Below are positions 5,140-23,950 of a DNA stretch of 64,000 bases, in pieces (the first letter of the stretch is position 1; the number at the start of each line of letters is the position of its first letter). The translations under genes and the position numbers were made by a program. The DNA lies in assembly GCA_963674745.2 (NCBI GenBank), contig CAXXDV010000003.1:2240001-2304000 (forward strand), given 5' to 3'. This DNA is from Desulfosudaceae bacterium. GTDB lineage: Bacteria; Desulfobacterota; Desulfobacteria; Desulfobacterales; Desulfosudaceae. The notes under the pieces were generated by a model. That model saw only the letters and a list, made by a program, of their open reading frames with translations. It searched no databases and had not been told where the DNA came from.

Positions 5140-7593
5140 TTGCGGCAGCATCATATGCTGATATCAAACAAAAAACACGAATACACGATGCCCGGCAATA
5201 ACCCAAGTTTAACAATTCGTTCTTCAAGCGACTTCCCGGCATTCCACTTCCTTCTATCAGCCGCGGTAATGGCCCTGATCACCTTATTCGCTTATGCCGA
5301 TACCTTCAACGTCCCGTTTATTTACGATGATGTCAATAATATCACCTTAAACCGCCATATCCGGATGACAGCCGTCACTTTTGACAGCATTGCAGCCGTA
5401 TCCGAAAGCCCCAGTCCGCGCCCCTTCGCCAACCTGACGTTGGCCTTGAATTACTATTTCGGCCGTTATGACGTCCGGGGCTACCATGCCGTCAATCTGA
5501 CCATTCATATTCTGACGGGCCTTCTGCTGTTTCTGGTCGCCCGGTCCACCCTGCGGCTCTGCGGAACGGAGGACGTGATAGCACCGCTTCTGGCCGCGGC
5601 CCTGTGGCTGGTCAACCCGGTTCACACCCAGTCGGTGACCTACACCGTTCAGCGCATGAGCTCTCTGGCCACCCTGTTCTACCTTTTGGCCCTGTCATGT
5701 TATATCCGGGCGCGAATAACGGCTTTATCCGGACAAGGCCGCATTCCGCAAGTGCTTCTTTACGCGCTCTGCCTGGCCTCCGGTATACTCGGGCTGCTTT
5801 CCAAGCAGACAACGGCCACCCTGCCGGTGATGCTGTTTTTATATGAATGGTATTTCTTTCAGGACCGGAATCCGGGCTGGCTGAAAAAACAGGTACCCTG
5901 GATCGGTCTGACCGCCCTCCTGGTTCTTGTCGTGGCTGCCCCCTACCTGGGTACCAGCCCGCTGGATAAAATGCTGACAATCTATGAAAAGCAGCCGTTC
6001 ACCCCGGCCCAGCGGCTGCTGACCGAGCCGGCCGTGGTGATCTATTATATCAGCCTGCTGTTGTTTCCCCATCCGGACCGGCTGACCCTGCTTTACGATT
6101 TTCCGATTTTTTCATCGATGACCACCCCGATGACGGCCCTGGCAGGTATCATGGGTGTTTCCGTCCTGGTCCTGGCCGGTCTGATGCTGTCAGGGAAACA
6201 CCGCCTGCTGTCTTTCGCCGTTTTCTGGTTTCTGGGTAACCTGGTCATCGAATCCTCGGTCTTAGGCCTGGCAATTGTTTTTGAGCACCGGACCTACCTG
6301 CCGTCGGTTTTTCCCTTGATCGCCCTGACCGCGCTGGGGGTATCGGCATTCCGAAAACGGTGGCCGGCCGTAGTGATTGCCGGTTTCCTGATCCTCATCT
6401 GCGGCTTCTGGACACACCAGCGCAACACGGTCTGGAATGATACTGTCGGCTTCTGGCAGGACAATGTCGCCAAGGCCCCTGATATGCCGGAAGTCAACAA
6501 CAACCTGGGACAGGCCCTGCTGAAAAAAGGAGAAACCGAACAGGCGGCCGATTACTTCAAAATTGCCATGAAAAAAGATCCCGACCTGGAATCAGCCCGA
6601 GTCAACCTGGGGGTAACCCTGCAGCGAATGGGACAATCAGAATTAGCGGCCTCCCTCTACCGGACAATACTGACAACCAATCCCGCCAATACCAAGGCCC
6701 GGTTCAACCTGGCGATGCTTTTCAAAGAGGGCGGCCATACAGAAGCCGCTGTCAGGCAGTTAAAAAAAATAATCGCCGTCGACCCCCATGACACCAGCAC
6801 CATGCTCAATCTCGGCACGATCCTGCTGGAACAGCAGCACAACGCTCAAGCACTCATGTGGTTCAGAAAAGCCCTTACCCTGGATGCCGATGACCCCAAG
6901 CTCCTCAACAATCTGGGTGTTGTGCTGCACCGCCTGGACCGGACCGAAGAAGCCATAAGCGTACTGCGGCAGGGACTGACGCTGGCCCCGCACAACCCCA
7001 TGCTTCATAATAGCTTGGGATTGGCGCTGCTGGATTGTGGTCGATACGAAAAGGCCATGGAACATTTTCAACTGGCCCTGGCCGCCGATCCCGAAATGGC
7101 TGACGCCGTCAACAACCTCGGACTGGCGGCCGAAAAACAGGGAAAAACTGATCAGGCCATTGATTATTACCGGCAGGCCATGGGACTATCCCCGGCATAC
7201 GATCTGGCCCGCTACAATCTCGCGAATCTTCTCCTGAAAACGGGTCAGCCCGACAGCGCCATTTCCCTGCTGAACGACATCACCACCGTAAGTCCGGAAC
7301 ATCAGCCGGCCCTGCATCGGCTCATCGTTGCCCTGGTTGACGCACGGGCAATAGGCCCGGCAACCAGGCTGGCCGAAAAAACAGCGGCGGCATTACCCGA
7401 AGAGGCTGTTGCGCACTACAACCTGGCCTGCCTTTACGCGAGGCAGAACGATACAGACAAGGCTGTTAATGCCCTGCGAACAGCGATCGACAGAGGATAT
7501 GACCGCTGGGATTATCTGTGCGACGATAAAGACCTTGAGAATATTCACTATACGGAATATTATAAACTATTGACGCGGCAATGTGATCAATGA
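5140..7593 (+). CDS. TMTC-like GT-C/TPR protein, copy 3 (longest TPR array; true start may be ATG 5155 or 5188)
   Basis: FIYDD, RPFANLTLALNY, EHRTYLP motifs; TPR array. Confidence 0.85.
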   Translation: MRQHHMLISNKKHEYTMPGNNPSLTIRSSSDFPAFHFLLSAAVMALITLFAYADTFNVPFIYDDVNNITLNRHIRMTAVTFDSIAAVSESPSPRPFANLTLALNYYFGRYDVRGYHAVNLTIHILTGLLLFLVARSTLRLCGTEDVIAPLLAAALWLVNPVHTQSVTYTVQRMSSLATLFYLLALSCYIRARITALSGQGRIPQVLLYALCLASGILGLLSKQTTATLPVMLFLYEWYFFQDRNPGWLKKQVPWIGLTALLVLVVAAPYLGTSPLDKMLTIYEKQPFTPAQRLLTEPAVVIYYISLLLFPHPDRLTLLYDFPIFSSMTTPMTALAGIMGVSVLVLAGLMLSGKHRLLSFAVFWFLGNLVIESSVLGLAIVFEHRTYLPSVFPLIALTALGVSAFRKRWPAVVIAGFLILICGFWTHQRNTVWNDTVGFWQDNVAKAPDMPEVNNNLGQALLKKGETEQAADYFKIAMKKDPDLESARVNLGVTLQRMGQSELAASLYRTILTTNPANTKARFNLAMLFKEGGHTEAAVRQLKKIIAVDPHDTSTMLNLGTILLEQQHNAQALMWFRKALTLDADDPKLLNNLGVVLHRLDRTEEAISVLRQGLTLAPHNPMLHNSLGLALLDCGRYEKAMEHFQLALAADPEMADAVNNLGLAAEKQGKTDQAIDYYRQAMGLSPAYDLARYNLANLLLKTGQPDSAISLLNDITTVSPEHQPALHRLIVALVDARAIGPATRLAEKTAAALPEEAVAHYNLACLYARQNDTDKAVNALRTAIDRGYDRWDYLCDDKDLENIHYTEYYKLLTRQCDQ
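5355..6599 (+). repeat. ~1.25 kb near-identical direct repeat, copy A (GT-C domain of TMTC-like gene 3)
   Basis: Matches 7848-9092 at offset 2493 with only scattered substitutions. Confidence 0.95.
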
Positions 7594-7680
7594 AGCTTAA
7601 GCAGTCACTGAAATATACCAATCCTGTCCCGGATGCCCGATCAATGGCAATGACGGGCGGAGGGGCTCCCGACGTCCGGA

Positions 7681-9675
7681 ATGCGAGGGCATAAAACAGC
7701 CATGACGACCGTTCTTTTAAACAGCCATCCCGGGCGCCAGACCGTTCTTGCGGTCGCTGTCATGACGTTACTGGCTTTACTGGTTTACGCTAATACTTTC
7801 AATGTTCCTTTTAATTACGACGACACCAACAACATTCTCACGAACACCCATATCCGGATGACAGCCGTCACTTTTGACAGCATTGCAGCCGTATCCGAAA
7901 GCCCCAGTCCGCGCCCCTTCGCCAATCTGACGTTGGCCTTGAATTACTATTTCGGCCGTTATGACGTCCGGGGCTACCATGCCGTCAATCTGACCATTCA
8001 TATTCTGACGGGCCTTCTGCTGTTTCTGGTCGCCCGGTCCACCCTGCGGCTCTGCGGAACGGAGGACGTGATAGCACCGCTTCTAGCCGCGGCCCTGTGG
8101 CTGGTCAACCCGGTTCACACCCAGTCGGTGACCTACACCGTTCAGCGCATGAGCTCTCTGGCCACCCTGTTCTACCTTTTGGCCCTGTCATGTTATATCC
8201 GGGCGCGAATAACGGCTTTATCCGGACAAGGCCGCATTCCGCAAGTGCTTCTTTACGCGCTCTGCCTGGCCTCCGGTATACTCGGGCTGCTTTCCAAGCA
8301 GACAACGGCCACCCTGCCGGTGATGCTGTTTTTATATGAATGGTATTTCTTTCAGGACCGGAATCCGGGCTGGCTGAAAAAACAGGTACCCTGGATCGGT
8401 CTGACCGCCCTCCTGGTTCTTATCGTGGCTGCCCCCTACCTGGGTACCAGCCCGCTGGATAAAATACTGACGACCTATGTAAAACAGCCGTTCACCCCGG
8501 CCCAGCGGCTGCTGACCGAGCCGGCCGTGGTGATCTATTATATCAGCCTGCTGTTGTTTCCCCATCCGGACCGGCTGACCCTGCTTTACGATTTTCCGAT
8601 TTTTTCATCAATGACCACCCCGATGACGGCCCTGGCAGGTATCATGGGTGTTTCCGTCCTGGTCCTGGCCGGTCTGATGCTGTCAGGGAAACACCGCCTG
8701 CTGTCTTTCGCCGTTTTCTGGTTTCTGGGCAACCTGGTCATCGAATCCTCGGTCTTAGGCCTGGCAATTGTTTTTGAGCACCGGACCTACCTGCCGTCGG
8801 TTTTTCCCTTGATCGCCCTGACCGCGCTGGGGGTATCGGCATTCCGAAAACGGTGGCCGGCCGTAGTGATTGCCGGTTTCCTGATCCTCATCTGCGGCTT
8901 CTGGACACACCAGCGCAACACGGTCTGGAATGATACTGTCGGCTTCTGGCAGGACAATGTCGCCAAGGCCCCTGATATGCCGGAAGTCAACAACAACCTG
9001 GGACAGGCCCTGCTGAAAAAAGGAGAAACCGAACAGGCGGCCGATTACTTCAAAACTGCCATAGAAAAAGATCCCGACCTGGAATCAGCCCGTCTTAACC
9101 TGGGCGTGGTAATGCTGATGACCGGAAAAATAAAACAGGCCGAAGCGCACCTTGAACAGGCCGCTTTGCTGGTTCCGGATTGCGGTCACTATAACAATCT
9201 GGGACTGACCGTCATGAAAACAGGCGACATTGAACGGGCCATTGCCTTTTTCAACCAGGCCCTTTATTTCAATCCCCATGATGCCAATACTCACTTCAAT
9301 CTGGGTACGGCCTGGTTTCAGCAAAAAAATCTGGATCGGGCCCGGAAACATCTGCAGCAGGCGGCCCGGTTGGCACCGGATCCTGTACTGGCACTGAATA
9401 ACCTTACAACTGTTTTGGTCATGCAAAAAAAATACGAGGAAGCCGCTAATACACTTCGCCACCTCTCCCGACTGAAACCGCATAATCCTGCGATCTATTA
9501 CAACCTGGCCTGCGTTTACGCCCTTAAAAACGAAAAGGAAACGTCCGTAGAAACGCTTAAAAGGGCCGTGGATTTGGGTTACAACCGCTGGCATCATCTG
9601 AAAAACGATCCCGACCTCGCCAACATACATGACACGGCTTACTTTAAGCGCCTGACAGGAACCGGAGGCATGTGA
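7681..9675 (+). CDS. TMTC-like GT-C/TPR protein, copy 4 (shortest TPR array)
   Basis: FNYDD and the same motifs; membrane domain almost identical to copy 3. Confidence 0.85.
   Translation: MRGHKTAMTTVLLNSHPGRQTVLAVAVMTLLALLVYANTFNVPFNYDDTNNILTNTHIRMTAVTFDSIAAVSESPSPRPFANLTLALNYYFGRYDVRGYHAVNLTIHILTGLLLFLVARSTLRLCGTEDVIAPLLAAALWLVNPVHTQSVTYTVQRMSSLATLFYLLALSCYIRARITALSGQGRIPQVLLYALCLASGILGLLSKQTTATLPVMLFLYEWYFFQDRNPGWLKKQVPWIGLTALLVLIVAAPYLGTSPLDKILTTYVKQPFTPAQRLLTEPAVVIYYISLLLFPHPDRLTLLYDFPIFSSMTTPMTALAGIMGVSVLVLAGLMLSGKHRLLSFAVFWFLGNLVIESSVLGLAIVFEHRTYLPSVFPLIALTALGVSAFRKRWPAVVIAGFLILICGFWTHQRNTVWNDTVGFWQDNVAKAPDMPEVNNNLGQALLKKGETEQAADYFKTAIEKDPDLESARLNLGVVMLMTGKIKQAEAHLEQAALLVPDCGHYNNLGLTVMKTGDIERAIAFFNQALYFNPHDANTHFNLGTAWFQQKNLDRARKHLQQAARLAPDPVLALNNLTTVLVMQKKYEEAANTLRHLSRLKPHNPAIYYNLACVYALKNEKETSVETLKRAVDLGYNRWHHLKNDPDLANIHDTAYFKRLTGTGGM
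7848..9092 (+). repeat. ~1.25 kb near-identical direct repeat, copy B (GT-C domain of TMTC-like gene 4)
   Basis: Matches 5355-6599. Confidence 0.95.
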
Positions 9676-9842: not shown

Positions 9843-10125
9843 TTTTTATTTTTGATACGCTTTTGCTTCATCAGCTTATTTGTTGGCGGGGAAAAAAAAT
9901 ATTGACAGGTTTATTTTGTCAGTGTTATGAGTTGATGACGTAAACACTGTTTACGTCTGTGAAAGGGGGTGATAAGGGCAAACTGGTTCTATCCAGACTC
10001 TGTTTTTTAGAGTCGACTATCGTCGGACTACCGTGCAAAACCCAAGCACATCCTTGGTCGGCGAAAAAGTTAAAAGTACTCAATTTAGTAAACCAAACGC
10101 TCAATCAACTTGTGGAGGAAACAGA

Positions 10126-10662
10126 ATGAAGAAGTTAATCGTTAGTTTAGTTGTCGGCGCTTTACTGGTATTGCCGCTTTCCGCTATGGCCATGGACGCC
10201 ATCAGCAATGCTGAGCTTGACGGCGTAGCCGGTCAGGCCGGTGTTACCATCGGCTTTGGCGGTACCACCACCACCACCATCGATTTCAGCGAGCTGAGCT
10301 GGGGAGATCCGGACGGCCTTGGTGCCGGTTGTGGCGCTAATCAGGGCTGGCTGATCATTGACGGTGATATCAGCATACAGCAGATAATTGCCGACGGCCA
10401 GACGCTGACACTGGATGTCGGTACCACCAACGCGGACAGCTGTAGCCCGGGCACAGACGCCGTTGTGATTCCCACTTCCGGAACCACCTTTGTCGCGGTG
10501 GGGCTGCCGTCTACCACAATGAACATCAGTGTTGCCAATCAGCTGACCATCGGGATGGGCACCGCAGCCGGCACCATTGCCGGTACAGTCGGCCTGCTGA
10601 ATCTGGAAAGCCTGTCAGTTGATGCGGGTACCCCAACTACCCTTTACATCTGGGCGCACTAA
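10126..10662 (+). CDS. Secreted FilA/DUF6160-like filament subunit, copy 1
   Basis: GGAGG RBS before ATG 10126; Sec signal MKKLIV...SAMA; then MDAISNAELDGVAGQAG, WGDPDG, Gly/Thr-rich beta pattern, C-terminal LYIWAH. Confidence 0.7.
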   Translation: MKKLIVSLVVGALLVLPLSAMAMDAISNAELDGVAGQAGVTIGFGGTTTTTIDFSELSWGDPDGLGAGCGANQGWLIIDGDISIQQIIADGQTLTLDVGTTNADSCSPGTDAVVIPTSGTTFVAVGLPSTTMNISVANQLTIGMGTAAGTIAGTVGLLNLESLSVDAGTPTTLYIWAH

Positions 10663-10696
10663 TTCGTTTTTCAATCTCAGTACGTTTCGGGGGAAT

Positions 10697-11299
10697 ATGT
10701 CTGCTTCAACGGGCATAAATCAAAAAAAAGAGTGGTTAAGACGGATTACCTTTGCCGGCCTTATCCTGATGTTCGGCTTTGCCGTTGTTTCACCGCTACC
10801 CTGCTCGGCAATGGAAGCCCTGACCCAACAGGAACTGGGTGATTTATCCGGAAGGAGCGGTATCAGTATGGGATTCGCCAGCCCTGCGACCGTCAGGGCG
10901 ACGTTTACCTCGCTGAGCTTCGGGGACTCAGATGGCTGGGGCGATGGCACAGGCGGAACTAATAATGCCGGCTGGCTGGTACTCACCGGCAACGGTGCCG
11001 AGTTAAACATTGAGATTCCTGCTAACGCGCAACTTGACATTGATGTCGGCCACACCGTAAGCACCTGCGCCCCCAAGAGTGGCGCAGCTTACGCCGGGTT
11101 AAAAATTCCGGCCGACTCCACTTTTTTTACTTTCAGCCTGACCGAAACCAATATTGTCCTGGTGGTTCCGGATACTGTCTATATTGGTCTCAGCCAATCG
11201 GGCAGTTCAGTAGGTGATTATATGGGTTATATGCGGGCGGACAATGTCGCCATCGATAAAGCGAACAAGAAAAGCTCCTGCTATATTTGGACGCATTAA
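10697..11299 (+). CDS. Secreted FilA/DUF6160-like subunit, divergent paralog
   Basis: Signal peptide, MEALTQQELGDLSGRSG, FGDSDG, C-terminal CYIWTH; ATG 10697 preferred to the overlapping start in the track. Confidence 0.65.
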   Translation: MSASTGINQKKEWLRRITFAGLILMFGFAVVSPLPCSAMEALTQQELGDLSGRSGISMGFASPATVRATFTSLSFGDSDGWGDGTGGTNNAGWLVLTGNGAELNIEIPANAQLDIDVGHTVSTCAPKSGAAYAGLKIPADSTFFTFSLTETNIVLVVPDTVYIGLSQSGSSVGDYMGYMRADNVAIDKANKKSSCYIWTH

Positions 11300-11359
11300 C
11301 GATAGCGCCCCCGTACTGAAAAAAAGAGGTATTACAACAACCAACATAAGGAGAAAGAA

Positions 11360-11896
11360 ATGAAAAAACTCGGATTAATTTGTTTAATCGTTAGTTTACT
11401 GGCCCTTCCGATGTCGGCCATGGCCCTGGAAAAAATGTCCGGAGAAGATCTGGGCGGCGTTACCGGTCAGGCCGGTGTTACCATCGGCTTTGGCGGTACC
11501 ACCACCACCACCATCGATTTCAGCGAGCTGAGCTGGGGAGATCCGGACGGCCTTGGTGCCGGTTGTGGCGCTAATCAGGGCTGGCTGATCATTGACGGTG
11601 ATATCAGCATACAGCAGATAATTGCCGACGGCCAGACGCTGACACTGGATGTCGGTACCACCAACGCGGACAGCTGTAGCCCGGGCACAGACGCCGTTGT
11701 GATTCCCACTTCCGGAACCACCTTTATCGCGGTGGGGCTGCCGTCTACCACAATGAACATCAGTGTTGCCAATCAGCTGACCATCGGGATGGGCACCGCA
11801 GCCGGCACCATTGCCGGTACTGTCGGGCTGCTGAATCTGCAGAGCCTGACCGTTGATGCGGGTACCCCGAGTACCCTTTACATCTGGGCTCACTAA
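11360..11896 (+). CDS. Secreted FilA/DUF6160-like subunit, copy 3 (mature part nearly identical to copy 1)
   Basis: AAGGAG RBS; signal peptide; LEKMSGEDLGGVTGQAG; LYIWAH end. Confidence 0.7.
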   Translation: MKKLGLICLIVSLLALPMSAMALEKMSGEDLGGVTGQAGVTIGFGGTTTTTIDFSELSWGDPDGLGAGCGANQGWLIIDGDISIQQIIADGQTLTLDVGTTNADSCSPGTDAVVIPTSGTTFIAVGLPSTTMNISVANQLTIGMGTAAGTIAGTVGLLNLQSLTVDAGTPSTLYIWAH

Positions 11897-11938
11897 GATC
11901 CCTGTGTCCGTTTGATGTATTATAACGGATAACAATAT

Positions 11939-11991
11939 GGATGTTTTTGGGCAGGCGGTAAAATAAATATACCCCTGCCCGAAAACATCCC
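11939..11991 (+). terminator. Long stem-loop after the third subunit gene (terminator-like or mRNA-stabilising)
   Basis: GGATGTTTTTGGGCAGG...CCTGCCCGAAAACATCC inverted repeat; no strong U-tract. Confidence 0.5.
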
Positions 11992-12009
11992 TTATAATAA
12001 TGCGCTATT

Positions 12010-13119
12010 ATGCAACCATTTAGAACCTTTACCCTCAATCCCAGCCTTATCAGGCAGACGTTCACCTGCTTTCTTTTTCTTTTGATTACCGTTTCTGCTT
12101 ACGCCGGCACAACTGAATTGTTGTCCGACGCCTGCATAGCAGACATTACAGCCGGTGCCGGTGATACGGTAATAACGGCTTTTTATGAGACCCCGACCAC
12201 AGCCTACATTGATAATACGCCCCGCTGGTGGGGGGATATGGATGGTGCTGCCGGTGCCGGATGCGGTAACGCACCCGGATTTATCGTCACCAACCTTCCC
12301 TACAATGATTTCCAGCATGATAATTTTAAGTATTCATTTAACAGTCAGGCTGAATTGGATGCGTTCATAAATGATCTGGCTACGTTGCCGGGCAGCCCAA
12401 TTAATGTGCTTGCCACTGACTATATCAAAAGCAACCCCGGTACCGACCATATTTTTTCCAATGACGGCAGGCCCCCCCGTGTCCAGGAAATCATCATTAC
12501 CACTGACCAGAAAATAAACGGAGATTTTGTCCGTACCCATAACGGCCAGGTCATTACCCAGAACGTGCGTTTTGACCTTGAATTCCTGCCGCCTTACGCG
12601 AGATCTTACACTACTGAAACAACGGAGCAAACAGCTGAGGGCAGGGACGGGAAAACCGGTCGCCTGCTCCCCTCCAGATCTTTCAGACAGTACAATCAAT
12701 ATGAATGGGTGCAACGAAATAATTCCGGCGTTGAAATCATACGGAATGCGGACGGAACATTCTACTTTACCCAGCGTCAGCCACACACGTTTAATTTCGG
12801 TGCGATTTATCTGGAATGTACGACTACGGGCGATCAGCCCATACTTTCATCTTCTGGTTATGTTGTCGTACCGCCAAACACCACTTTTCTGAGAAACACC
12901 ATTTATAATGATTTGAATGTTTACAGCCCTGCTTTGGGCATGACGATCGGCCTTGCCCCTGCCGGAGAAACCGATCCGGAAACCGGGGAAATTTCTCCCG
13001 ACCTTGATCACTATCAGGAACTGGGAATACTTGATATAAGAAATTTGAATATTTCGCTAAAAGGCGGCAACGATATTTATGTTTATGCCAATGAGGATCT
13101 GGATGTGCGCTGCCCCTAA
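12010..13119 (+). CDS. Large FilA-like paralog with inserted domain (candidate minor or tip subunit)
   Basis: Signal peptide; LLSDACIADITAGAG; WWGDMDGAAGAGCG; VVVPPNTTF; LGILDIRNL...IYVYAN align to the small subunits around a central insert. Confidence 0.55.
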   Translation: MQPFRTFTLNPSLIRQTFTCFLFLLITVSAYAGTTELLSDACIADITAGAGDTVITAFYETPTTAYIDNTPRWWGDMDGAAGAGCGNAPGFIVTNLPYNDFQHDNFKYSFNSQAELDAFINDLATLPGSPINVLATDYIKSNPGTDHIFSNDGRPPRVQEIIITTDQKINGDFVRTHNGQVITQNVRFDLEFLPPYARSYTTETTEQTAEGRDGKTGRLLPSRSFRQYNQYEWVQRNNSGVEIIRNADGTFYFTQRQPHTFNFGAIYLECTTTGDQPILSSSGYVVVPPNTTFLRNTIYNDLNVYSPALGMTIGLAPAGETDPETGEISPDLDHYQELGILDIRNLNISLKGGNDIYVYANEDLDVRCP

Positions 13120-13353
13120 AAAAGACTTCCAGATCATCGACTTCTATTATCACATTTCCTCTTTGATTATCTCTTATTTTAAGCAAGCGGTTATTACCAA
13201 ATTTATTTACACGGTTTTAATAAACGGAACCAGAACATTCGTGTGTTTTTTAATTTTTTCTTTACAAAACAAGTTTCATATGATTAAGCTTAATACGATA
13301 AACAATGTTCACCAGTTGATTTTGCTTAAACCGGTGCCTGGGGGAGACTAATT

Positions 13354-14136
13354 ATGCACGTACTTATTGCTTTCTTAATCAGTACTGCCTTGCTTTCCGG
13401 TTTTCTCCCCTCAAGGGAGATACCTGACAATGAGGTGCGTTTTATTTATGCCCCTATTGACGGTATAACAACCAACACGGATTACTATCTTCCCCACGCT
13501 CTCCAGCCGGTCGAACTGCATTTTGAGATGAGAAACGCGTCGGATATAGAAAAATCACGCATTATTTCTCAGAAATATGACTATAGTTGCGGATCTGCTG
13601 CCCTGGCCACACTCTTAAGATACCACCTTGCTGAAGATTTTGAGGAAACGCACATTATTCACGGCCTGCTGAAATACGGGGACAAGGAAAAAATTATAGA
13701 GAGAAGGGCGTTCTCCCTTCTGGATATGAAAAAATTTGTTAATGCCATCGGATACCAGGGCGTGGGCTACAAGGCTGAAATAGAGGACCTTGAAACGCTG
13801 AACATGCCCTGCATTCTACCCATGGAACTTTACGGTTATCGCCATTTTACCGTGTTCAAAGACGTTTATAAAGGCCATGTTTTTCTGGCTGACCCGTTTC
13901 AGGGAAACACCAGCTACCCGATAGAACAATTTAAAAAGTTGTGGCATGAAAATGTTATTTTTGTCGTTTATCCTTCAGGAGAAGAGCAATTGGCCTTATT
14001 AAAATTGAAAAACGACGATCTCCGTTTTATGGATGAAGATCGGACACTGGATATCATGTTTCGAGACAGAATGTTAGAGAAAGAACCAATGCCGATTGAG
14101 ACAGATCCTAAAACACGACAATACTATAAAAGATAA
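13354..14136 (+). CDS. C39 family cysteine peptidase (FilB/FapD-like), stand-alone, with N-terminal signal
   Basis: SQKYDYSCGSAALATLL (Gln, Cys), RHFTV (His), LADP (Asp); FSLLDMK motif. Confidence 0.9.
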   Translation: MHVLIAFLISTALLSGFLPSREIPDNEVRFIYAPIDGITTNTDYYLPHALQPVELHFEMRNASDIEKSRIISQKYDYSCGSAALATLLRYHLAEDFEETHIIHGLLKYGDKEKIIERRAFSLLDMKKFVNAIGYQGVGYKAEIEDLETLNMPCILPMELYGYRHFTVFKDVYKGHVFLADPFQGNTSYPIEQFKKLWHENVIFVVYPSGEEQLALLKLKNDDLRFMDEDRTLDIMFRDRMLEKEPMPIETDPKTRQYYKR

Positions 14137-14160
14137 ACCGCAATGCGCCTCAGGAGGTAC

Positions 14161-16092
14161 ATGTTGAAGGCAAATATAAAAATTATTTTCATGGCGGCGT
14201 TATTACTGACAGCCCTGGTAATAAATGGAAACGGTCAGGAAAACCAGACAGGTACCAAGGCCAGCGACCAGGCTGAAACCGGTTTTTCAAAAAGCCTCAC
14301 CTCGAGAGAGTTGGAGCGGCAAACCGCTGCCGGCCTGAAAAAGGACCTGGCCCCTGAAGCACTTGAGGCAGCCACTGGTGCCGGCCTGAAAAAAAATCTG
14401 GACAGTGATGAACTGCAGGAGTCCACGGCCGCCGGCCTGAAAAAAGACCTGACCACTGAAGAGTTAAATTCATCCATTGGAGCGGGCATCAGGCGTGTCT
14501 CATCGCTGGAACTGGATAAAGCATCCGGCCGGGGATTTATGACCGACATGACCCGGGCGGAGCTGGAAAATCTTGTCGGTAAGGGCTTTATCGGCAAGCT
14601 TACACCTGATGAAATTGAACAAATCAGCGCCCGGGGAACATTATCTGATGAACAGGCGCGAATGACCATCAAAGACCTTGCTTCTGTTTTCGCTCAGGGC
14701 GTTAAATTCATCATTGACACATCAAAATTTTCAGAAGAGGAGCTGGGCGAAATTAAAGGCCGGGGCACCCTTCAGGATATCGGTAAATTCCCCTACTCGA
14801 TCCAGGTGGGGGTTTTCAGGGACAAAGCCAATGCCATTGCCATGCTGGAAACCATTAAAGGACAAGGCTATGATCCTTATATTTTCAGAACCCGTGATGA
14901 CCTCGGCAATTCGCTGTTTGCCGTTCGCCTCGGCGATTATGAATCCATTCAGGAAGCTTATGCCGAAGTGACACATTACAAGGGCAAAGAACACAAGGAA
15001 GCTTTTGTCACCTACATCAACTCTACCAAAAGTGTGGATGAAAAAGACATCGTTAATGAAAAAGATGAAAGCGCACGTCCGGATCTTTCTAATCAGCTTG
15101 ATTTTGACAAAGAATACGCCAGCGAGGATCTGAGGGCTCTTTACAAACAGATTCAAGCACTTGAAGGTGAAGTTGATAAATTACGGACTGAGTCGCAAGC
15201 CAGGAAAAAACTCAAGATGACAGAAGCCGAGCAGCAAAAGGAGGAAGAAGAAATCCTCTCCGCTGCCGGGCGTGAGTATGTGCTGTCGCCGGCCGGAACT
15301 TTAAGCTTTGATTATAATTTCGGATACACCCATAACAGTTATGACGAGGCTGAATGGAACGTTTCCCGCATCAAGCATACAGCTGATCATACACTGACGA
15401 ACACCCTGTCAACCACTTACGCTCTGTTCGACAACCTTTCTTTGTCCGCGTCCATTCCGTTCAAATATAAGTATCACGATCTGGGTGTCAGCGGGTCAAA
15501 AGATGTCAGCGATTTAGGCGACCTTTCTTTAAGCTTCAGCTGGCAGCCTACCAAATCCCAACAGTCGATACCGCCTATCATTGTTACTACCAGTGTTTCC
15601 GCGCCTACCGGTCGGGGACCGTATGAAATCAACCCGGAAGTTGATTTATCAACCGGTTCCGGTATTTATTCGTTTTCACTTGGTGTCAACACCAACAAAA
15701 AAGTCGATCCGGTAGTGGTTTACGGGGGGCTTGCTTATTCCTTTCTGTTAAAGGAAAAAGACTTGGACTACTATCTGGGAACAGGCGCTGTTCTTAATGA
15801 AGTAGAACCGGGCGGGGGGGTTGCCTTGAGCCTGGGGCTTGGTTATGCCATGTCCTATGCGGCAACTATCAACGTAGGCATCAGTATGACTTATTCCTTC
15901 GGGTCAACGTATTATTATCTGGACGGCAGTAAGTCGGAAACCGGTGATGCGGTCAGCGCCAGCCTCAGCCTGGGTACCGGCTGGCGTTTTTCAAGCCAGC
16001 GGACAATCAGTTTTTCCGTTGGCATCGGCCTGACCAATGATGCTTCGGACTTCTCATTTTCCTTTAGAATACCCTTTGATTACGCACTGTAA
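14161..16092 (+). CDS. Outer-membrane transporter (FilC/FapF-like beta-barrel) fused to N-terminal 17-aa repeats, a SPOR domain and a coiled coil
   Basis: AGGAGG RBS; signal peptide; YSIQVGVFRDKANA SPOR motif; LRALYKQIQALEGEVDKL coiled coil; LGDLSL...APTG barrel motifs; C-terminal FSFRIPF. Confidence 0.7.
   Translation: MLKANIKIIFMAALLLTALVINGNGQENQTGTKASDQAETGFSKSLTSRELERQTAAGLKKDLAPEALEAATGAGLKKNLDSDELQESTAAGLKKDLTTEELNSSIGAGIRRVSSLELDKASGRGFMTDMTRAELENLVGKGFIGKLTPDEIEQISARGTLSDEQARMTIKDLASVFAQGVKFIIDTSKFSEEELGEIKGRGTLQDIGKFPYSIQVGVFRDKANAIAMLETIKGQGYDPYIFRTRDDLGNSLFAVRLGDYESIQEAYAEVTHYKGKEHKEAFVTYINSTKSVDEKDIVNEKDESARPDLSNQLDFDKEYASEDLRALYKQIQALEGEVDKLRTESQARKKLKMTEAEQQKEEEEILSAAGREYVLSPAGTLSFDYNFGYTHNSYDEAEWNVSRIKHTADHTLTNTLSTTYALFDNLSLSASIPFKYKYHDLGVSGSKDVSDLGDLSLSFSWQPTKSQQSIPPIIVTTSVSAPTGRGPYEINPEVDLSTGSGIYSFSLGVNTNKKVDPVVVYGGLAYSFLLKEKDLDYYLGTGAVLNEVEPGGGVALSLGLGYAMSYAATINVGISMTYSFGSTYYYLDGSKSETGDAVSASLSLGTGWRFSSQRTISFSVGIGLTNDASDFSFSFRIPFDYAL
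14284..14766 (+). repeat. About 9 tandem 16-22 aa repeats, consensus L-T/S-x-x-E-L-x4-G/A-x-G
   Basis: GCCGGCCTGAAAAA at 14329, 14380 and 14431 (51-bp period); translated repeats visible. Confidence 0.85.
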
Positions 16093-16110
16093 AACGTGAC
16101 AGGAGAATTG

Positions 16111-17928
16111 ATGCGATCACGACCACAGGCCAGACCGGGATGGTTATTTTTAATTGCCTGTTTTATATTCAGCCTCGGCGGCAGTATCAACTGCCAGGCA
16201 GCCCTTTTTGAAAACATGGCCATCTGTGCCAAGGCCATCTCGCTGGCAAACTCCTGTACCGCCTATCCTCCGGATCAAATGTCCATTCACTATAATCCGG
16301 CCGGGCTATCCACTGTTCATGACGGTCTCCAATTGAGCCAGGGGCTTCTCACCGCCTCGTTTGCATTAAAATCAAGGTTTGATCCGGATCCGGACTTTCC
16401 CGGATGGCTGGGCGGAATTTACAGCGGGGAGCCGGGTGATTCTGATTATTACGACTACCGCCCCGAAGCCGATCCGGTTGCCGGCCAAAGCGGTACCAGT
16501 TCAGGTGTTCATCTTTACCTTCCCCTGATGGGCTCCCAGGACATGAGTTCTGTCGGTATGCCGACGCCGTTTGGTTTTTCTCTGGCCGCAGCCCCTTTCC
16601 CTTTTGGCCTGTCTTACCGGAAACCGAATTCACGCGTAACCTTCGGATTCGGTTTATATGCCCCTGCCATGGGCGGGTTTTACCGTGATGACGATGACCC
16701 CGCCCGGTACAACGGACGGGCGCTTTCCATGCAGCACATTGTTTACGCCGCACCAGCCGTCAGCTATCAACTGACGGATACCCTTTCCGTAGGGGTTACC
16801 CTGGGGCTTGGTCAGGGTGCCACCGAGATTGACACGGACATGCGATTGCCCAACGACATGACCGCATTGACGGAAATTCTCGGTATATCAACGCAAGGAT
16901 TGAACATCCCCGTTATTTCTCAATTGACCCTCCCCCCGCCATGGATGGGCGGCGGTGTCGGCCCTTATGACGATATCGGCAACATGTCTCTTGCTGTCCG
17001 TGATGACTATACACCGAGCTACAATCTTGGTCTTCTTTGGGAACCGTCCAACTGGTTTTCATTCGGTCTCTGTTATCAAAGTGAAGTCAAAATGGAATAT
17101 AGCGGCAGCTTCAAATTCACCTACAGCGAGGAATTTCAAGGTTTTGTCGCCTGGATGGGCAGTTCGCCACTACTCCTGGCCGTTTCCCAGCTGCTGGATC
17201 TTCCCTACCGATCCACACCTTACCAGCAAGGGGCAGTCAACTTGACAGGTGGAGACTTCCCGGAGAGAATCCAGACCGGTATCATGCTTCGCCCCATCCG
17301 CCGTCTTAGGCTGATGTGTGATCTGCACTGGATAAACTATTCCAAGACCAAGGCCTATACCATAATCTTTGACCAGGACATCCAGGCTTTAATGATATCC
17401 AAATTCATCGGGCACCTGGATGGGAATAACAGATTAAAGATTGACATGAACATGAAGGATGAAGTCCATCTCAGCTTCGGCCTTGAATACCAACTGCTGG
17501 ACTGGCTGTCCTTAAGATGCGGTTATGAAGACAGAAAAACATCTGTAAACATGGACTATTTCTCGTTGCTGGCACCGCTGGCCGATATAGACTACTATGG
17601 TGTCGGCCTGGGCATTCAATTAAAAAGCGGCCTGAAAATCGATCTGGCCGCCGGGTTTCTCAAGTCCGACTCATGGGAGGTGCCCAACAATTCCAGTAAG
17701 AATCTGAACTCTACGGAATTTATCGATGCAGTGTACAACCCCTATGGGGGTATGGATGTTTCGGGCAGCATGGAAGCCACCCTCATTGCCGCCAATTTTT
17801 CCCTGCCGTTCGAATATCTTTACCGGGTCGGCGACTTGTTAAAAGATACCGGGCAAAAAATCAAAGAGAATATGCCTTTTATGAAAAAATCGAAAAAGCC
17901 TGAAACACAGGACCCGATCAATAAGTAA
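16111..17928 (+). CDS. FadL/OmpP1/TodX-family outer-membrane protein (FilD-like)
   Basis: Signal peptide; KAISLANSCTAYPP..SIHYNPAGL FadL-type N-terminal motif; alternating beta-strand pattern. Confidence 0.8.
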   Translation: MRSRPQARPGWLFLIACFIFSLGGSINCQAALFENMAICAKAISLANSCTAYPPDQMSIHYNPAGLSTVHDGLQLSQGLLTASFALKSRFDPDPDFPGWLGGIYSGEPGDSDYYDYRPEADPVAGQSGTSSGVHLYLPLMGSQDMSSVGMPTPFGFSLAAAPFPFGLSYRKPNSRVTFGFGLYAPAMGGFYRDDDDPARYNGRALSMQHIVYAAPAVSYQLTDTLSVGVTLGLGQGATEIDTDMRLPNDMTALTEILGISTQGLNIPVISQLTLPPPWMGGGVGPYDDIGNMSLAVRDDYTPSYNLGLLWEPSNWFSFGLCYQSEVKMEYSGSFKFTYSEEFQGFVAWMGSSPLLLAVSQLLDLPYRSTPYQQGAVNLTGGDFPERIQTGIMLRPIRRLRLMCDLHWINYSKTKAYTIIFDQDIQALMISKFIGHLDGNNRLKIDMNMKDEVHLSFGLEYQLLDWLSLRCGYEDRKTSVNMDYFSLLAPLADIDYYGVGLGIQLKSGLKIDLAAGFLKSDSWEVPNNSSKNLNSTEFIDAVYNPYGGMDVSGSMEATLIAANFSLPFEYLYRVGDLLKDTGQKIKENMPFMKKSKKPETQDPINK

Positions 17929-18093
17929 CACTTTTTTTAGAAGGACAAAATAAGCTCAATATCAGCTTTTTAATTCAAAAGGCCAAAACTCCTGATAGAA
18001 TTCACATTGCAGTGTAGTGTCAGGATGCGTTCTTGCGATGTGCTGATATTGAATTTTTTTTTGCGGTCTTTAATCACATGGGAAAGAGGAAAA

Positions 18094-19764
18094 ATGAGAT
18101 TACTGCTGTTTTCTTTACTGCTTGTCACATCACCGGGCATTTTATTCGCAAACCAGGCAAAAACCACGATAGAAGAAAGGATGGTTCCTCTAGGTCATGG
18201 CATCAGCGGAGAAGAGATATATGTCAACTCACTTGAAATAAGCCCCGATTTTAAACATATCGGCTATGTTTCCAGAATTGGTGGGACATTCCGGGTGTGG
18301 CTGGACGGAGTGTCCAAGAAAAGCCACAGTGGTGTTACCAGGCAGTCTCCGTTCTTCTCTCCCGAACAGAACCGGCTGGCATATATTGCCAATGAAGGGG
18401 ACAACATGTTTGTTGTCATTGATAACCACGAACATGACCGATATAAACAAGTCGGAACCCTGACGTTCAGCCCTGACGGTTCTCGAGTCGCGTATCGGGC
18501 CGAAGATGCCAAGGGAAGTCAGTTTGTCGTTATTAACGGTAAAGAGGGGCCGAAATTCGATGTGGGAATTACTAATGATATCGGCATTGTCTTCAGCCCT
18601 GATTCAAAGCATGTGGCTTATGTCGGTATCAACGACAAGGACTCCGTTATATTTGTTAAAGACAACAAAAAAATAGACAGTTTTAAACAAATCAAGCAGG
18701 TCAAATTTTCCCCTGACTCAAATCACCTTGCCTATTCTGCCATGAAAGACGATGGATGGGTCGTTGTCCTGGATAATAAATCTGGCCAAACGTATATAAT
18801 GGTCGACAACCTGATGTTTTCTCCTGACAGCACTCAGCTGGTTTATATGGCTCAAAAAAGCCGCCGCTCGATTATCGTAATAAACAACAAAGAAATCAGT
18901 GAGGGAATCGGTGTGCTTTTCCCCTCCTTTTCGCCCCATAAGGGACGGTTTGCGTACATCATTGCTGAAAAGAATAATAAATTTTGCTATGTCCTGGATG
19001 GGGAAAAAGAACTTTTAGTGGATAAACCCGGCCGGATGATTTTCAGCCATGATGATACCAGCGCGGCCTATGCCGCTTTGATAAAGGACAAGTGGCATGT
19101 TTTAAAAGACGGTGTTAAGGGCCCGGCTTTTAAAAAGATCTACGCTTTTTCCTATTCCCCTGCCAGCAATGATATTCTGTACGCCGCTGAAAATGAAGCG
19201 GGTCAAAAATGTGTTGTAGTCAACCACATTCCGGAAAAATTTTATAACTCAATTGGCGCACCCGTATACAGCAAAAATGGTCAAAAATATGCATACGTGG
19301 CCACGAACAACGACGGGAAGATGTTCATAATCATCAATGGACAGGAGCAAAAAACGACATATCCCATAATCGGGATTCCCGTGGAAGAAGTCAATGAGTC
19401 GGGGGTCAGCGCCCAGCATCCGTATTTCAGTGACACCGGCAAACGGCTGGCTTTTCCGGTTTACGATCCTGACCAAAAGAAAGCCTTCATGGTGGTTGAC
19501 GGAAAAAACCAGCAAACCTTTGACGCGGTTATGGCGCCCTGCTTTTCTCCCGATGAAAAACACATCGCCTATATGGGCAAAAAAGGAAACAGCTGGCACA
19601 TGGTCGTGAATGGGAAACCCGGCCGCCATACCTGCGACGGAATGATTCGCGGTGCAACCATCGCATTTGATCCCGCTAATAACTGCTTTTTTATACTGGT
19701 TGCCAGCAACACTGAATCAGGCCTTTCTTTTTACCGCATGGAGGCTGAGATCAAAAGCCCTTAA
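18094..19764 (+). CDS. Secreted beta-propeller repeat protein (TolB/PD40-like)
   Basis: About 10 repeats of FSPD...AY.A......VV.DG; signal peptide after GAGG RBS. Confidence 0.75.
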   Translation: MRLLLFSLLLVTSPGILFANQAKTTIEERMVPLGHGISGEEIYVNSLEISPDFKHIGYVSRIGGTFRVWLDGVSKKSHSGVTRQSPFFSPEQNRLAYIANEGDNMFVVIDNHEHDRYKQVGTLTFSPDGSRVAYRAEDAKGSQFVVINGKEGPKFDVGITNDIGIVFSPDSKHVAYVGINDKDSVIFVKDNKKIDSFKQIKQVKFSPDSNHLAYSAMKDDGWVVVLDNKSGQTYIMVDNLMFSPDSTQLVYMAQKSRRSIIVINNKEISEGIGVLFPSFSPHKGRFAYIIAEKNNKFCYVLDGEKELLVDKPGRMIFSHDDTSAAYAALIKDKWHVLKDGVKGPAFKKIYAFSYSPASNDILYAAENEAGQKCVVVNHIPEKFYNSIGAPVYSKNGQKYAYVATNNDGKMFIIINGQEQKTTYPIIGIPVEEVNESGVSAQHPYFSDTGKRLAFPVYDPDQKKAFMVVDGKNQQTFDAVMAPCFSPDEKHIAYMGKKGNSWHMVVNGKPGRHTCDGMIRGATIAFDPANNCFFILVASNTESGLSFYRMEAEIKSP

Positions 19765-19790: not shown

Positions 19791-20570
19791 TCAATCCTTC
19801 AATTGCCGGCTGATTTCAGCGGCCACCTTTTCACCGGACAGCAGCATACCACCGAAAATCGGTCCCATACGGGGACCGCCAAAGGTGGCGTTGCCGGCCA
19901 TTCCGGTTACATAAAGGCCGGGATAGACCTCCCGCGTGTTCTCCAGGGTCAATGATTCAGCCCGTTCCGACCACATGGATTTTTCACCTTCTATGCCGCC
20001 GCTGGCGGTATTCAATGTTCCGGGGGTTTTCTCGGATACCACCCGGACCACTTCAGTAGCATGGCCGGTGGCGTCAATCACAAAACCGGACCTGATGGCC
20101 AATGGATCGATGTGTAACCCGGCCATCTCGACCGGAGACCAGTTAAGCACCAGGCCGGTCACCCGTCCCGGCCGGATGAGCACGTCCTCCACGCTGACGC
20201 AGTTAAAAACCGTCAGACCCGCTTTAACCGCCCGGCTGGTCAGGGTCGAAACAGCTTCCACGGCATCAGTGGTGTAATAATCATCCTGATATTGACGATA
20301 ACCGACACCTGTTTCATCCAGGATGTGCAGCGCGCTCTTTTGTACCACGATTTCGTTGAACATCATGCCGCCGCCCCACATGCCGCCGCCGATACTTAAT
20401 TTACGTTCATACATAGCCACCTTGTGACCGGCCCTGGCCAGATAAAAACCGGCCACCAGTCCGGACGGTCCACCGCCGACAATGGCCACGTCTATCTCCA
20501 GATTGGCTGTCAATTTTTCATAATACCGGTCGATAATTGCCCGGGTGATGATGACTTCATTGAGTTCCAT
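19791..20570 (-). CDS. thi4: Sulfide-dependent adenosine diphosphate thiazole synthase (Thi4)
   Basis: [45 protein letters not shown]. Confidence 0.95.
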
Positions 20571-20573
20571 GTA

Positions 20574-21863
20574 TTATTTTCCTTTTATCTCCGAAATCGT
20601 GTTATGCAGCTTAACCGCGCACAGATCGCCGCACATGGTGCATATCTCTTTTTCTCCGGCTTCGCTCTCCTCACGGCGCTTTCCGGGTAAAACCGGATCC
20701 AGAGCAAGGCGGTACATGCCTTTCCAGTCCAGTGCTTTCCGACATGCCGACATCTCAATATCCCGTTCTATTGCGCCCGGCACGCCTTTGGCAATATCAC
20801 CGGAATGAGCGGCAATCCTTGCCGCAATCACGCCCATACGGACGTCTTCCATGTCCGGCAGGCACAAGTGTTCGGCCGGGGTGACATAACAAAGAAAGTC
20901 CGCCCCGGCAGCGGCCGCCACCGCTCCTCCGATGGCGGCGGTAATATGATCATATCCCGGGGCGCAATCCGTGGTCAACGGGCCGAGCACATAAAACGGC
21001 GCGCCATCACAAAGCTCTTTTTCGAGCTGCATGTTGGCTGCAATCTGGTTCAGGGGAACATGTCCCGGCCCCTCGATCATCACCTGAACCCCGGCCGCTC
21101 TGGCGCGCCGCGCCAGTCCGCCCAGGACCACCAGCTCTTCGATCTGGGCAGCATCCGTGGCATCGGCTATGGCACCGGGGCGCAGCCCGTCGCCCAGGCT
21201 CAACGTCACATCATATTTGAAAGCAATGGCCAGTAAACGTTCAAAATCCGCATACAGGGGGTTCTCCTGCTGATTATGGTGCATCCACGAAGCCAGAAGC
21301 GCGCCGCCCCGGCTGACAATACCGGCCACCCGATCGCCTTCTCTGGCCAGACGACTCGCCTTCTGGGTCACGCCGCAATGAACGGTAATATAATCTATCC
21401 CCTGTTGACACTGCTCTTCGATAACTTCGAATAACCTGTCCGGCACCATTTCATAAAAAGCCCGTGCCTGGCAACTCATCTCGGACGCCACCGCGTAAAT
21501 GGGGACCGCCCCTACCATGACCGGTGAATTTTCCAGAACGAGCTTCCTGACGGCTTGCAGGTCGCCTCCGGTGGACAAATCCATCACACTGTCGGCCCCG
21601 GCGTTAACGGCTATTTTCAATTTTTTAAGTTCTTCAGCCGTATCAAAATGCTCCGGAGAAGTGCCGATATTGGCATTGACTTTCGTCCTCAGGCCGTTAC
21701 CGATTCCCATGGCCGGAAAATCCCGGTTAATATTCTTCGGGATAACAATCCTGCCGGAAGCGACCCCTTCCCTGATCATTTCAGGCGAACGGTTTTCACT
21801 TGCCGCGACAAGCTTCATCTCGTCCGTTACAACGCCCTGTCTGGCCTGGCTTAACTGTGTCAT
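20574..21863 (-). CDS. thiC: Phosphomethylpyrimidine synthase ThiC (short form)
   Basis: [52 protein letters not shown]; adjacent to thi4 with a TPP riboswitch upstream. Confidence 0.93.
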
Positions 21864-22521: not shown

Positions 22522-23637
22522 CTAATTTGTCAAAGATGCTTCGGATTCAATGGCGATTGCCCAGATAAAACCGCAAAGTTCCCGGGCGATAGCGGTTATA
22601 ATGACCTGCTTGGTTTTTCCTTTGGCCCAAAAATGCCGGTAGCGTCCACAGAGTCTTAATTGTGCTTTCCAGGAAATATCACGGATGCTTTGCGGTAATC
22701 CTTCCTGTTTCTTCAGTAATGCTCGAGTAACCCGTGCTCTGTGCCGGTACGACCAGGCCGCTTCAACCAGTATGCGGCGCACATGCGAATTACCGGTTTT
22801 GGTGATCGGGCCGCGCTTGATATTTTCGCCGGTGGAATATTCTGATGGCACCAGGCCAAGATAGCTCATCAGTTGATCCGGGTGGTCAAAACGATTAAAA
22901 CTTCCGATCTCCACGGTGATTATAGCGGCAGCGAGTAACGAGATGCCGCGCAGGCTCTGGAGCGCTTGAACGACAGGAAACATCCGCCATTGCGGTATGA
23001 GCTGATGTATCTGCTCGGTGAGCCGCTGAACACGCAGGCTGCAATGATCCAGATGGTCGACATATTCTTGCAGGACAATTTGCTGGGACTCATGGGGCAT
23101 TTTGATATCGGCAATCCAGCGCCGATGAGCCTGGGTCCACGGCGTACGTCCGGTATACGTAAAACCGCTACGCAGCAGAAAAGCCGACAATCGCTGCTTG
23201 CAACGTTTTTCATCCTGCTTGATATCACTACGCGCTCTGACCAGGTCTCGCAAGGCCTCGTCTTCGGCAAGGGGAACATGAACGGAAGTCAAGTCGCCGG
23301 ATCGATGCAAACGCGCCAGCATAAGAGAATCGCGCCGGTCATTTTTAATCCGGTTCCCGCTCTGCTTGGGAATCAGCGAAGGCGCTACCACCTTACAGTC
23401 AAAACCCTTGGCAGTAAGATGACGATAGATCTGATAACCGCAGGGACCGGCCTCATACACAAAATGCAGATCGGCATTTTTACTGACCATCTTACGTGTC
23501 ACCTTGTCCAGTGCCGCCAATGTTCCATCGATTTGACCATAGTGTACAACTTCACCATTACACCCGCCTTGGGCGATGGAAATATCAATACTTTTTTTGT
23601 GGACATCCATACCGATAAATATGCTATTCTTCTTCAT
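22522..23637 (-). CDS. IS110-family DEDD transposase/recombinase
   Basis: IGMDVHK, YEAGPCG, KNDRRDS (DEDD); LGLVPSEYSTG catalytic Ser; GPITKTGN..VRRILVEAAW. Confidence 0.97.
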   Translation of the reverse strand: MKKNSIFIGMDVHKKSIDISIAQGGCNGEVVHYGQIDGTLAALDKVTRKMVSKNADLHFVYEAGPCGYQIYRHLTAKGFDCKVVAPSLIPKQSGNRIKNDRRDSLMLARLHRSGDLTSVHVPLAEDEALRDLVRARSDIKQDEKRCKQRLSAFLLRSGFTYTGRTPWTQAHRRWIADIKMPHESQQIVLQEYVDHLDHCSLRVQRLTEQIHQLIPQWRMFPVVQALQSLRGISLLAAAIITVEIGSFNRFDHPDQLMSYLGLVPSEYSTGENIKRGPITKTGNSHVRRILVEAAWSYRHRARVTRALLKKQEGLPQSIRDISWKAQLRLCGRYRHFWAKGKTKQVIITAIARELCGFIWAIAIESEASLTN

Positions 23638-23787
23638 GACCTGCCTCCTTGGTATTGGCTCTGTGCCAGGTTAATGTAGGTTGACCTTTAGCATAACCCA
23701 CGTTTGCAAGGATGGCAGGTCATTTCCTTCTATTTTAACTGTCAATCATTATGTCTAAAACGTTATTTAACCACTTAACCACATTCG

Positions 23788-23826
23788 AAAAAAAAAGGCT
23801 GGTCCCGCAACAGGAACCAGCCTTTT
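23788..23826 (-). terminator. Intrinsic terminator of the TPP riboswitch expression platform
   Basis: Minus strand GGCTGGTTCC-TGTTGCG-GGACCAGCC followed by a T9 tract. Confidence 0.85.
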
Positions 23827-23844
23827 AAAATACATCAAAATCAC

Positions 23845-23922: not shown

Positions 23923-23950
23923 AACAAGAAGCATGAGCGCTTGTTCGTTT

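Follow-up and report, generated by a model that had tools for sequence, protein, structure and literature searches.

Why should an outer-membrane pore protein carry, strung along its N-terminal part, nine copies of a motif that resembles the leaders of the fibre subunits encoded beside it? The question is raised by a 64,000-nucleotide stretch of the genome of a Desulfosudaceae bacterium (assembly GCA_963674745.2, contig CAXXDV010000003.1, positions 2,240,001 to 2,304,000), hereafter the window, in which all coordinates are counted unless another location is given. The open reading frame (ORF) at 14143..16092 on the forward (+) strand encodes 649 residues. Its barrel fold, PTG motif, profile matches and neighbouring genes identify the product as the outer-membrane pore in a fibre-export system of the Fil/Fap type. 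We find that the copies are genuine repeats, that they resemble the leaders more than chance allows, and that they are conserved among homologues and rare in the family as a whole. As a tentative answer we propose that they may be uncleaved pseudo-leaders that dock a C39 peptidase at the pore.

The nine 13-residue motifs lie in tandem at residues 52-208 (14296-14766), individually at 52-64, 69-81, 86-98, 103-115, 119-131, 136-148, 153-165, 174-186 and 196-208. Translation of 14284-14766 returns exactly the nine strings quoted in an earlier note on this DNA, which had called them copies of the subunits' leader motif. Repeats 1-4 (residues 52-115; 14296..14487, +) are 17-residue units of the form LKKDLTxxELxxST[GA]AG. 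Tandem Repeats Finder detects a 51-bp (17-residue) period at 14326-14462, with 2.7 copies and 74% matches, so these copies are repeats at the DNA level too. Repeats 5-9 (residues 119-208; 14497..14766, +) read VSSLELDKASGRG, MTRAELENLVGKG, LTPDEIEQISARG, MTIKDLASVFAQG and FSEEELGEIKGRG and are less regularly spaced. The note's pattern L-T/S-x-x-E-L-x4-G/A-x-G, taken as [LVMF][TSAD]xx[ED][LI]xxxx[GA]xG, fits eight of the nine copies and fails for copy 2, which reads E-A-L. When residues 41-215 were shuffled 20,000 times with their composition kept, the mean number of pattern matches was 0.007 and the maximum 2, and eight was never reached. The motifs are internal and tandem, not N-terminal as on exported precursors.

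In an AlphaFold2 (AF2) model based on an 18-sequence alignment, the repeats have predicted local distance difference test (pLDDT) values below 50 and form one short helix per copy without packing. No compact repeat fold or solenoid, the arrangement that the earlier note had set against its own reading, was confidently predicted for them in this low-confidence model. The picture would fit linear docking motifs in a flexible arm, the shallow alignment leaving room for a fold. Pfam searches of the repeat region for repeat families at E up to 10 gave noise only, a PDB sequence search returned eight matches to unrelated proteins (best E 0.22), an ESM Atlas search with residues 45-212 gave no usable match, and the Pfam leader families did not match the window's own repeats.

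The putative leader with which the repeats were compared stands at the head of the co-encoded subunits. In 48 of the 55 subunit 3 homologues listed, the motif follows directly on the Sec cleavage site (...LSAMA before the cut, MDAISNAELDGVAGQAGVTIGFG after it); the remaining seven have a variant at one position or are fragments. The form h-S-D-x-x-L-x-x-h-T-G-Q-A-G-h-S-I heads the subunits of related loci whether pore repeats are present or not. Double-glycine leaders have the consensus LSxxELxxIxGG, and the DUF6160 motif, aligned on such a leader, places G at -2 and either Q or R at -1. Homologues of a larger subunit-like protein in two related loci (L003 and L004) read LLSDKTIAQI[YD]GG, which we take to be a textbook leader with the canonical double glycine.

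With a 12-column matrix for which 48 distinct subunit leaders were the sole source, we scanned the 13,858 stop-to-stop ORFs of at least 100 residues in the genome (2,913,924 sequence windows, 186 of which score at least 5 bits). The pore ORF contains four in-register matches of at least 5 bits, namely copies 5, 6, 8 and 9 (9.6, 9.4, 5.7 and 5.7 bits), against an expectation of about 0.04 for an ORF of its size (hand calculation), and only one of the scanned ORFs, an exact low-complexity tandem, has more. The likeness to the subunit leaders claimed in the earlier note is thus above chance and in one register for these four copies but does not extend to the other five, all of which fall below 1 bit; by this independent matrix the resemblance is partial, covering about half of the nine. 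A reciprocal matrix was made from 90 repeats of homologues, the window's own being left out. On it the leaders of subunits 2 and 3 rank 12 and 25 among about 2.9 million sequence windows, or 6th and 18th with the pore gene set aside, while the leader of subunit 1 lies outside the top 45. When the two logos were compared, the best offset was 0, with a summed column correlation of 8.19 against a null of 3.72 ± 0.67, and none of 2,000 column shuffles attained the observed score, so that motif similarity exceeded the shuffled controls here as it had in the composition shuffles.

Columns 1-12 of the logos agree, with correlations of 0.33-0.86, and columns 13-14 disagree, with -0.11 and -0.24. The likeness extends over leader positions -12 to -1 and goes no further than the expected cut, past which the leaders continue x-G and the repeats G. 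Set against the double-glycine consensus h-S/T-x-x-E-L-x-x-h-x-G-G, the repeats agree with the subunit leaders at -12 to -2 and have R, K, Q or A at -1; in the canonical register this position is R, K or Q in copies 5-9, and copies 1-4 end in small residues (A-A-G, G-A-G).

Among the 18 homologues of the pore protein, all from Thermodesulfobacteriota-type metagenome bins where named, the repeat number, which the earlier note had proposed to survey, does vary: the 17-residue units represented here by copies 1-4 number from 0 to 5, copies 6-9 are kept down to about 47% identity, and copy 5 is missing in the most distant homologues. In the alignment the motif positions are conserved and the positions in between vary. 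A related clade (L009, L011, L013 and P0076) has 5-8 repeats of 16 residues, for example ELATVDGQTG and EMATVDGRTG, and has them after the peptidoglycan-binding SPOR domain. On a 14-column leader matrix from which this clade's own leaders were excluded (background 149 in 2,886,208 sequence windows), these repeats give 5-8 in-register matches of at least 5 bits. They share the leader-specific G-[QR]-x-G, and in Pfam they show similarity, below threshold, to the leader portions of Bacteriocin_IIc (E 0.02), Lactococcin and ComC. They match the leader far better than the repeats of the window do, which strengthens the idea of mimicry.

The protein that carries the repeats is an outer-membrane transporter of the FapF/FilC kind by profiles, AF2 and Foldseek, as the earlier note had supposed. 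From the N-terminus it consists of a signal peptide, the repeats, a SPOR domain, a long helix and a barrel. The SPOR domain (residues 217-289; 14791..15009, +) scores 41.8 bits in Pfam (cut-off 21); domains of this family bind peptidoglycan. The AF2 monomer model, numbered by the 642-residue database form that starts at 14164 and therefore 7 lower than the 649-residue ORF, has a mean pLDDT of 56. It contains the SPOR fold (pLDDT 65-77), a single long helix before the barrel at 320-366 (residues 327-373 of the ORF; 15121..15261, +) and the barrel itself at 379-641 (pLDDT about 70-82). The FapF-like beta-barrel with its PTG motif (APTGRGPY) lies at 15298..16089 (+). The ten best Foldseek matches listed are all FapF chains, headed by 5o67_A (E 2.8e-19, template modelling (TM) score (target) 0.76), and the COG4313 channel 4rl8 comes after the FapF chains with E 1.9e-11. 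In the PTG motif, which has been described for the FapF-type barrel family (PMC6173800; this and the other papers on Fap are cited from the accessible part of their text), G483 is invariant and P481 and T482 are conserved at 90% or more among the 18 homologues. By fold and motif the pore protein is a distant member of the FapF/COG4313-type barrel family (Pfam PF13557), and it probably functions in the manner of a FapF/FapD or FilC/FilB pair. By analogy with FapF (PMC5557850), the long helix presumably forms a coiled coil and the protein a trimer, and the repeats would lie in the periplasm like the N-terminal part of FapF (PMC5557850). The NCBIfam FilC profile (384 positions) covers residues 293-647 only and the FapF profile 456-645 only, so the repeats lie outside all that the known profiles span; the earlier note had likewise not recognised this architecture from FapF or FilC.

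The repeats are also uncommon among relatives. Among 21 loci from species-representative genomes, six have the window's layout of repeats followed by SPOR, three have SPOR followed by repeats, three have SPOR without repeats, eight have no extension and one is cut by a contig end. Such repeats occur in two of the best 150 representatives among 1096 family hits, one in each clade; the extensions of the other representatives are, by eye, SPOR, lectin-like, OmpA-like or of low complexity. SPOR is common in this branch of the family, and the leader-like repeats are the unusual part. With the repeat region as query, none of 400 other genomes of the phylum matched. A quick IQ-TREE tree of 78 pore cores placed the window's clade (support 100), the related repeat clade (100) and a repeat-free clade in one group of 17 rows (97); the branching order inside this group is compatible with either one or two origins of the repeats.

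What might read the repeats? Double-glycine-type leaders have an established reader, the C39 peptidase, and the gene just before that of the pore (13354..14136, +) codes for one. It has 260 residues with a hydrophobic N-terminus, is FilB/FapD-like (Pfam Peptidase_C39 66.3 bits, FilB E 1e-55, FapD E 6e-37), has Q73, C79, H164 and D180 invariant in 10 of 10 aligned homologues, and is the only FilB-like gene product in the genome. Of the two ideas in the earlier note, a tether for several C39 peptidases and a string that is itself cleaved to gate the channel, we tentatively favour the tether. The argument is one of analogy: a C39 peptidase reads double-glycine leaders, and its gene adjoins the pore gene in all 20 of the loci that have upstream DNA.

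In the proposed mechanism the periplasmic arm would start at the barrel with the coiled coil and continue inwards with the SPOR domain and then with nine short amphipathic helices on a flexible string, every one of them closing with G-x-G. The helices would copy leader positions -12 to -1 (h-S/T-x-x-E-L-x-x-h-x-G-Q/R) of the segment that comes right after the Sec signal in the co-encoded DUF6160 subunits. They would offer many weak docking sites, up to 27 per pore if the protein is a trimer like FapF, to a reader of leaders, the likeliest candidate being the periplasmic C39 peptidase whose gene lies upstream. Removal of the leader would be coupled to export and take place at the pore mouth. 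The repeats themselves would be bound by the peptidase but not cut. We suggest binding without cutting because the likeness ends at the cut site and because, in both layouts, a binding domain lies beyond the repeats on the far side from the barrel (SH3b in P0015, L005 and L006; SPOR in the related clade), which cutting of the repeats would sever. A co-fold, run without controls, of part of the C39 peptidase (60-235, on a 10-row alignment) and the stretch 105-205 of the 642-residue form, which holds repeats 5-9, scored 0.27 and 0.30 against a mark of 0.32. That an outer-membrane translocon recruits a free periplasmic C39 peptidase through a multivalent string of uncleavable copies of the cargo leader is a bolder reading, which we hold with somewhat more reserve than the docking itself.

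Several observations weigh against docking. Copies 1, 2, 3, 4 and 7 score -7.8, -6.0, -10.2, 0.7 and -6.6 bits on the leader matrix, and true leaders score at least 17.9 bits. The leader motif ends G-x-x-G and the repeats end G-x-G. The search patterns with which the sequences were gathered had in part predetermined logo columns 5, 6 and 11. When 31 subunits were compared with 18 pore proteins, profile against profile, the signal peptides alone aligned (probability 1.3%), and the Pfam DUF6160 model found no match in the repeats. The other 148 of the best 150 representatives have no such repeats, and the C39 peptidases are alike at loci with and without them (about 250 residues, the same hydrophobic N-terminus), so that they give no sign of a particular need for a tether. 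The subunit motif itself is a presumed leader, whose removal by the peptidase would be expected from the family. Finally, unrelated ORFs contain generic LTxxELxxh helices, such as LTTRELAEMVAA, that do as well as the leaders on the reciprocal matrix, and the shared grammar of an S/T-x-x-E cap, an amphipathic helix and a glycine stop is generic.

These last points, together with the five of nine copies that fail the leader matrix, agree with an alternative explanation, in which the repeats are a flexible helical spacer that sets the periplasmic reach of the protein and their likeness to leaders is a by-product of common helix grammar. The drift of units 1-4 from 0 to 5 copies among close homologues and the plain low-complexity linkers found at the same place in other family members fit a spacer as well. 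It would leave unexplained, however, why four matches to a matrix made from leaders alone should fall in one ORF, a number second only to that of a low-complexity tandem among the 13,858 scanned, why the repeats of the related clade share the leader-specific G-[QR]-x-G, and why motif positions are conserved while those between them vary. We consider a mere spacer rather unlikely.

The docking proposal shares its leader likeness with a second alternative, that the repeats are true C39 substrates whose cutting trims or frees the N-terminal part of the pore, switching the channel or releasing it from peptidoglycan. Rouse et al. consider cleavage by FapD of the FapF linker, which bears GG motifs (PMC5557850), and the small residues that close copies 1-4 are like those of double-glycine sites. 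Copies 5-9, however, have R, K or Q at -1, and the logos part company at the presumed scissile bond. What is more, the repeats precede SPOR in the window's clade and follow it in the related clade, so that cutting would have different consequences in the two, and it would discard the conserved SH3b or SPOR domain beyond the repeats. Cleavage of the repeats therefore seems improbable to us.

The most conserved part of the subunits (TGQAGVSI) spans the presumed cut at repeat-bearing and repeat-free loci alike, suggesting a structural role for this segment. A third alternative, in which the repeats mimic the N-terminal segment of the subunits, fill its site in the fibre and hold subunits at the pore as on a chaperone-like rack, could draw on that conservation and on the related-clade repeats, which copy the stretch as well (DG[QR]TGxVV), but it appears very doubtful, since the window's repeats lack any counterpart of what follows the glycine, the subunit model is too poor to reveal such a site and the accessible Fap literature yielded no FapF precedent.

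The genes around the pore gene are those expected of a Fil/Fap-type locus, and all lie on the + strand. Fibre subunit 1 (10123..10662) is a DUF6160/FilA-like protein of 179 residues in which a Sec signal is followed by ISNAELDGVAGQAG; it scores 31.4 bits with Pfam DUF6160 (cut-off 27), falls under the cut-off of NCBIfam FilA and reaches 32.8 bits on the leader matrix. Fibre subunit 2 (10697..11299, its start codon chosen within the ORF 10619-11299) is a diverged DUF6160-like protein with leader LTQQELGDLSGRSG (17.9 bits; FilA E 6e-6; subunit hidden Markov model (HMM) E 2e-52). Fibre subunit 3 (11360..11896), a DUF6160 protein of 178 residues with leader MSGEDLGGVTGQAG (36.8 bits), is 87% identical to subunit 1; its AF2 model, with a mean pLDDT of 55, is too poor for a fold search or for telling if the leader stands apart from the rest. 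The larger subunit-like protein (12010..13119, 369 residues) has the leader-like LLSDACIADITAGAG and matches the subunit HMM at E 4e-8 and no Pfam family. After the C39 peptidase and the pore comes a FadL/FilD-like outer-membrane protein of 610 residues (16096..17928; Pfam Toluene_X 134 bits, FilD E 7e-94, PorV_fam E 2e-9).

Three ORFs outside the window have a leader-like motif near the N-terminus. They encode 585, 210 and 1421 residues, their motifs LSNEDLGSVMGQ, IPDAKLDSITGQ and LPDSELLDVAGQ score 21.9, 14.5 and 16.7 bits on the leader matrix, and they lie at about 2219869-2219973 (-) and about 1346740-1346862 (-) of contig C3 and at 2492869-2497131 (+) of contig C1. The genome having a single FilB-like peptidase, the three may belong to the cargo of this system as well.

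The FadL-like gene is followed by one for a TolB/PD40-like beta-propeller protein (18007-19764, +), which is also found in L001-L006; systems of this subgroup may thus have it as a sixth, conserved component. At 7681-9675 (+) lies the gene of a multi-pass membrane protein that has TPR repeats at its C-terminus and recurs beside Fil-type loci (L003 1971-6463, L004 601-3111, L011 13728-15863) with a common motif, YANT..PF.FDD, recognised by eye; its N-terminal 420 residues match no Pfam family. The subunits contain a poly-threonine run (FGGTTTTTIDF), which prompts the guess that this membrane protein has a role in subunit glycosylation. In the SPOR-first loci L009, L011 and L013 (about 2140-8810, +) a protein of about 2200 residues is encoded between the leader-bearing subunit and the C39 gene. 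Contigs from RNA libraries (four runs of one marine-sediment study), 90-99% alike, cover, within 10000-16100 of the window, the subunit genes and parts of the pore gene, among them 14163-14367 and 14542-14783. These contigs show that relatives are present in the libraries, not that the genes are transcribed, and their depth cannot rank the genes.

Further along the window, an IS110-family transposase gene (22522-23637; Pfam Transposase_20 and DEDD_Tnp_IS110), within 22522-23926 (-), separates a thiamine pyrophosphate (TPP) riboswitch (23833-23926, Rfam 69.8 bits) from thiC-thi4 (20574-21863 and 19791-20570), the genes that this riboswitch would be expected to control. The IS110 insertion may have put the thiamine genes beyond control by the riboswitch.

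FapD, the C39 peptidase of the Fap system, is essential for secretion (PMC5557850, PMC6173800), and the accessible text of the same papers describes its substrate and its link to the pore as undetermined, reads the co-localisation of fapD and fapF as a conserved interaction and, in the first of them, considers FapF itself as a target of FapD (PMC5557850). In the accessible part of a recent preprint FapD is called a precursor-processing protease and nothing more (bioRxiv 10.64898/2026.10.01.755530). Our searches, in which subscription journals were sparsely covered, found no literature on DUF6160, the Fil mechanism, repeats of this kind or the architecture described here. If docking occurs, the repeats would give a first concrete handle on the long-suspected interaction of the FapD-FapF type, and would show a way of coupling cutting to export across the periplasm that needs neither ATP nor a fused enzyme. 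Because cargo and pore both carry a recognisable leader-type motif, they would allow a direct and cheap test of docking for the periplasmic C39 class.

The nearest known relative in structure is FapF, the functional-amyloid transporter of Pseudomonas (5O65, 5O67, 5O68), which has the same barrel fold (TM score 0.76-0.80), the PTG motif, a long periplasmic helix before the barrel and an adjoining gene for a Sec-exported C39 peptidase, FapD. With about 21% identity and 67 bits on the NCBIfam FapF profile (cut-off 700), the window's protein is a distant relative and not a FapF; its cargo consists of DUF6160 subunits instead of FapC-type amyloid repeats, and it has a SPOR domain and nine leader-like repeats in addition. 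According to the accessible text of PMC5557850, canonical C39 sequences are absent from the Fap proteins, whereas the subunits here have a clear leader-like motif. The closest match in gene content is the 'putative pilus' of Acinetobacter, FilA-FilD (NF050077-NF050080), all four families of which match in the same order of subunits, C39 peptidase, pore and FadL-like protein. The scores stay far below the curated cut-offs, however (FilC, NF050079, 187 against 630; FilB 189 against 475; FilD 315 against 970), and the 384-position FilC profile has neither repeats nor SPOR.

Two further systems resemble the proposed mechanism. In RTX type 1 systems of the HlyB type a C39-like fold binds its partner without cutting (PMC5557850). 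There the peptidase is inactive, whereas here its Cys, His and Asp are kept and it is the look-alike motif that would be uncuttable. In peptidase-containing ABC transporters (PCATs) of the PCAT1/ComA/LagD type a C39 peptidase (for its role, PMC5557850) recognises the leader, which is amphipathic and closes with two glycines. The enzyme is kept at the translocon, so that cutting is coupled to export. There it is fused to an inner-membrane transporter and its place of action is the cytoplasm; the peptidase of the window is a protein of its own in the periplasm, the link proposed is non-covalent and to an outer-membrane pore, and position -1 is Q, R or K instead of G. If our proposal is correct, the repeat string would be a non-covalent, outer-membrane counterpart of the fusion of peptidase and transporter in PCATs.

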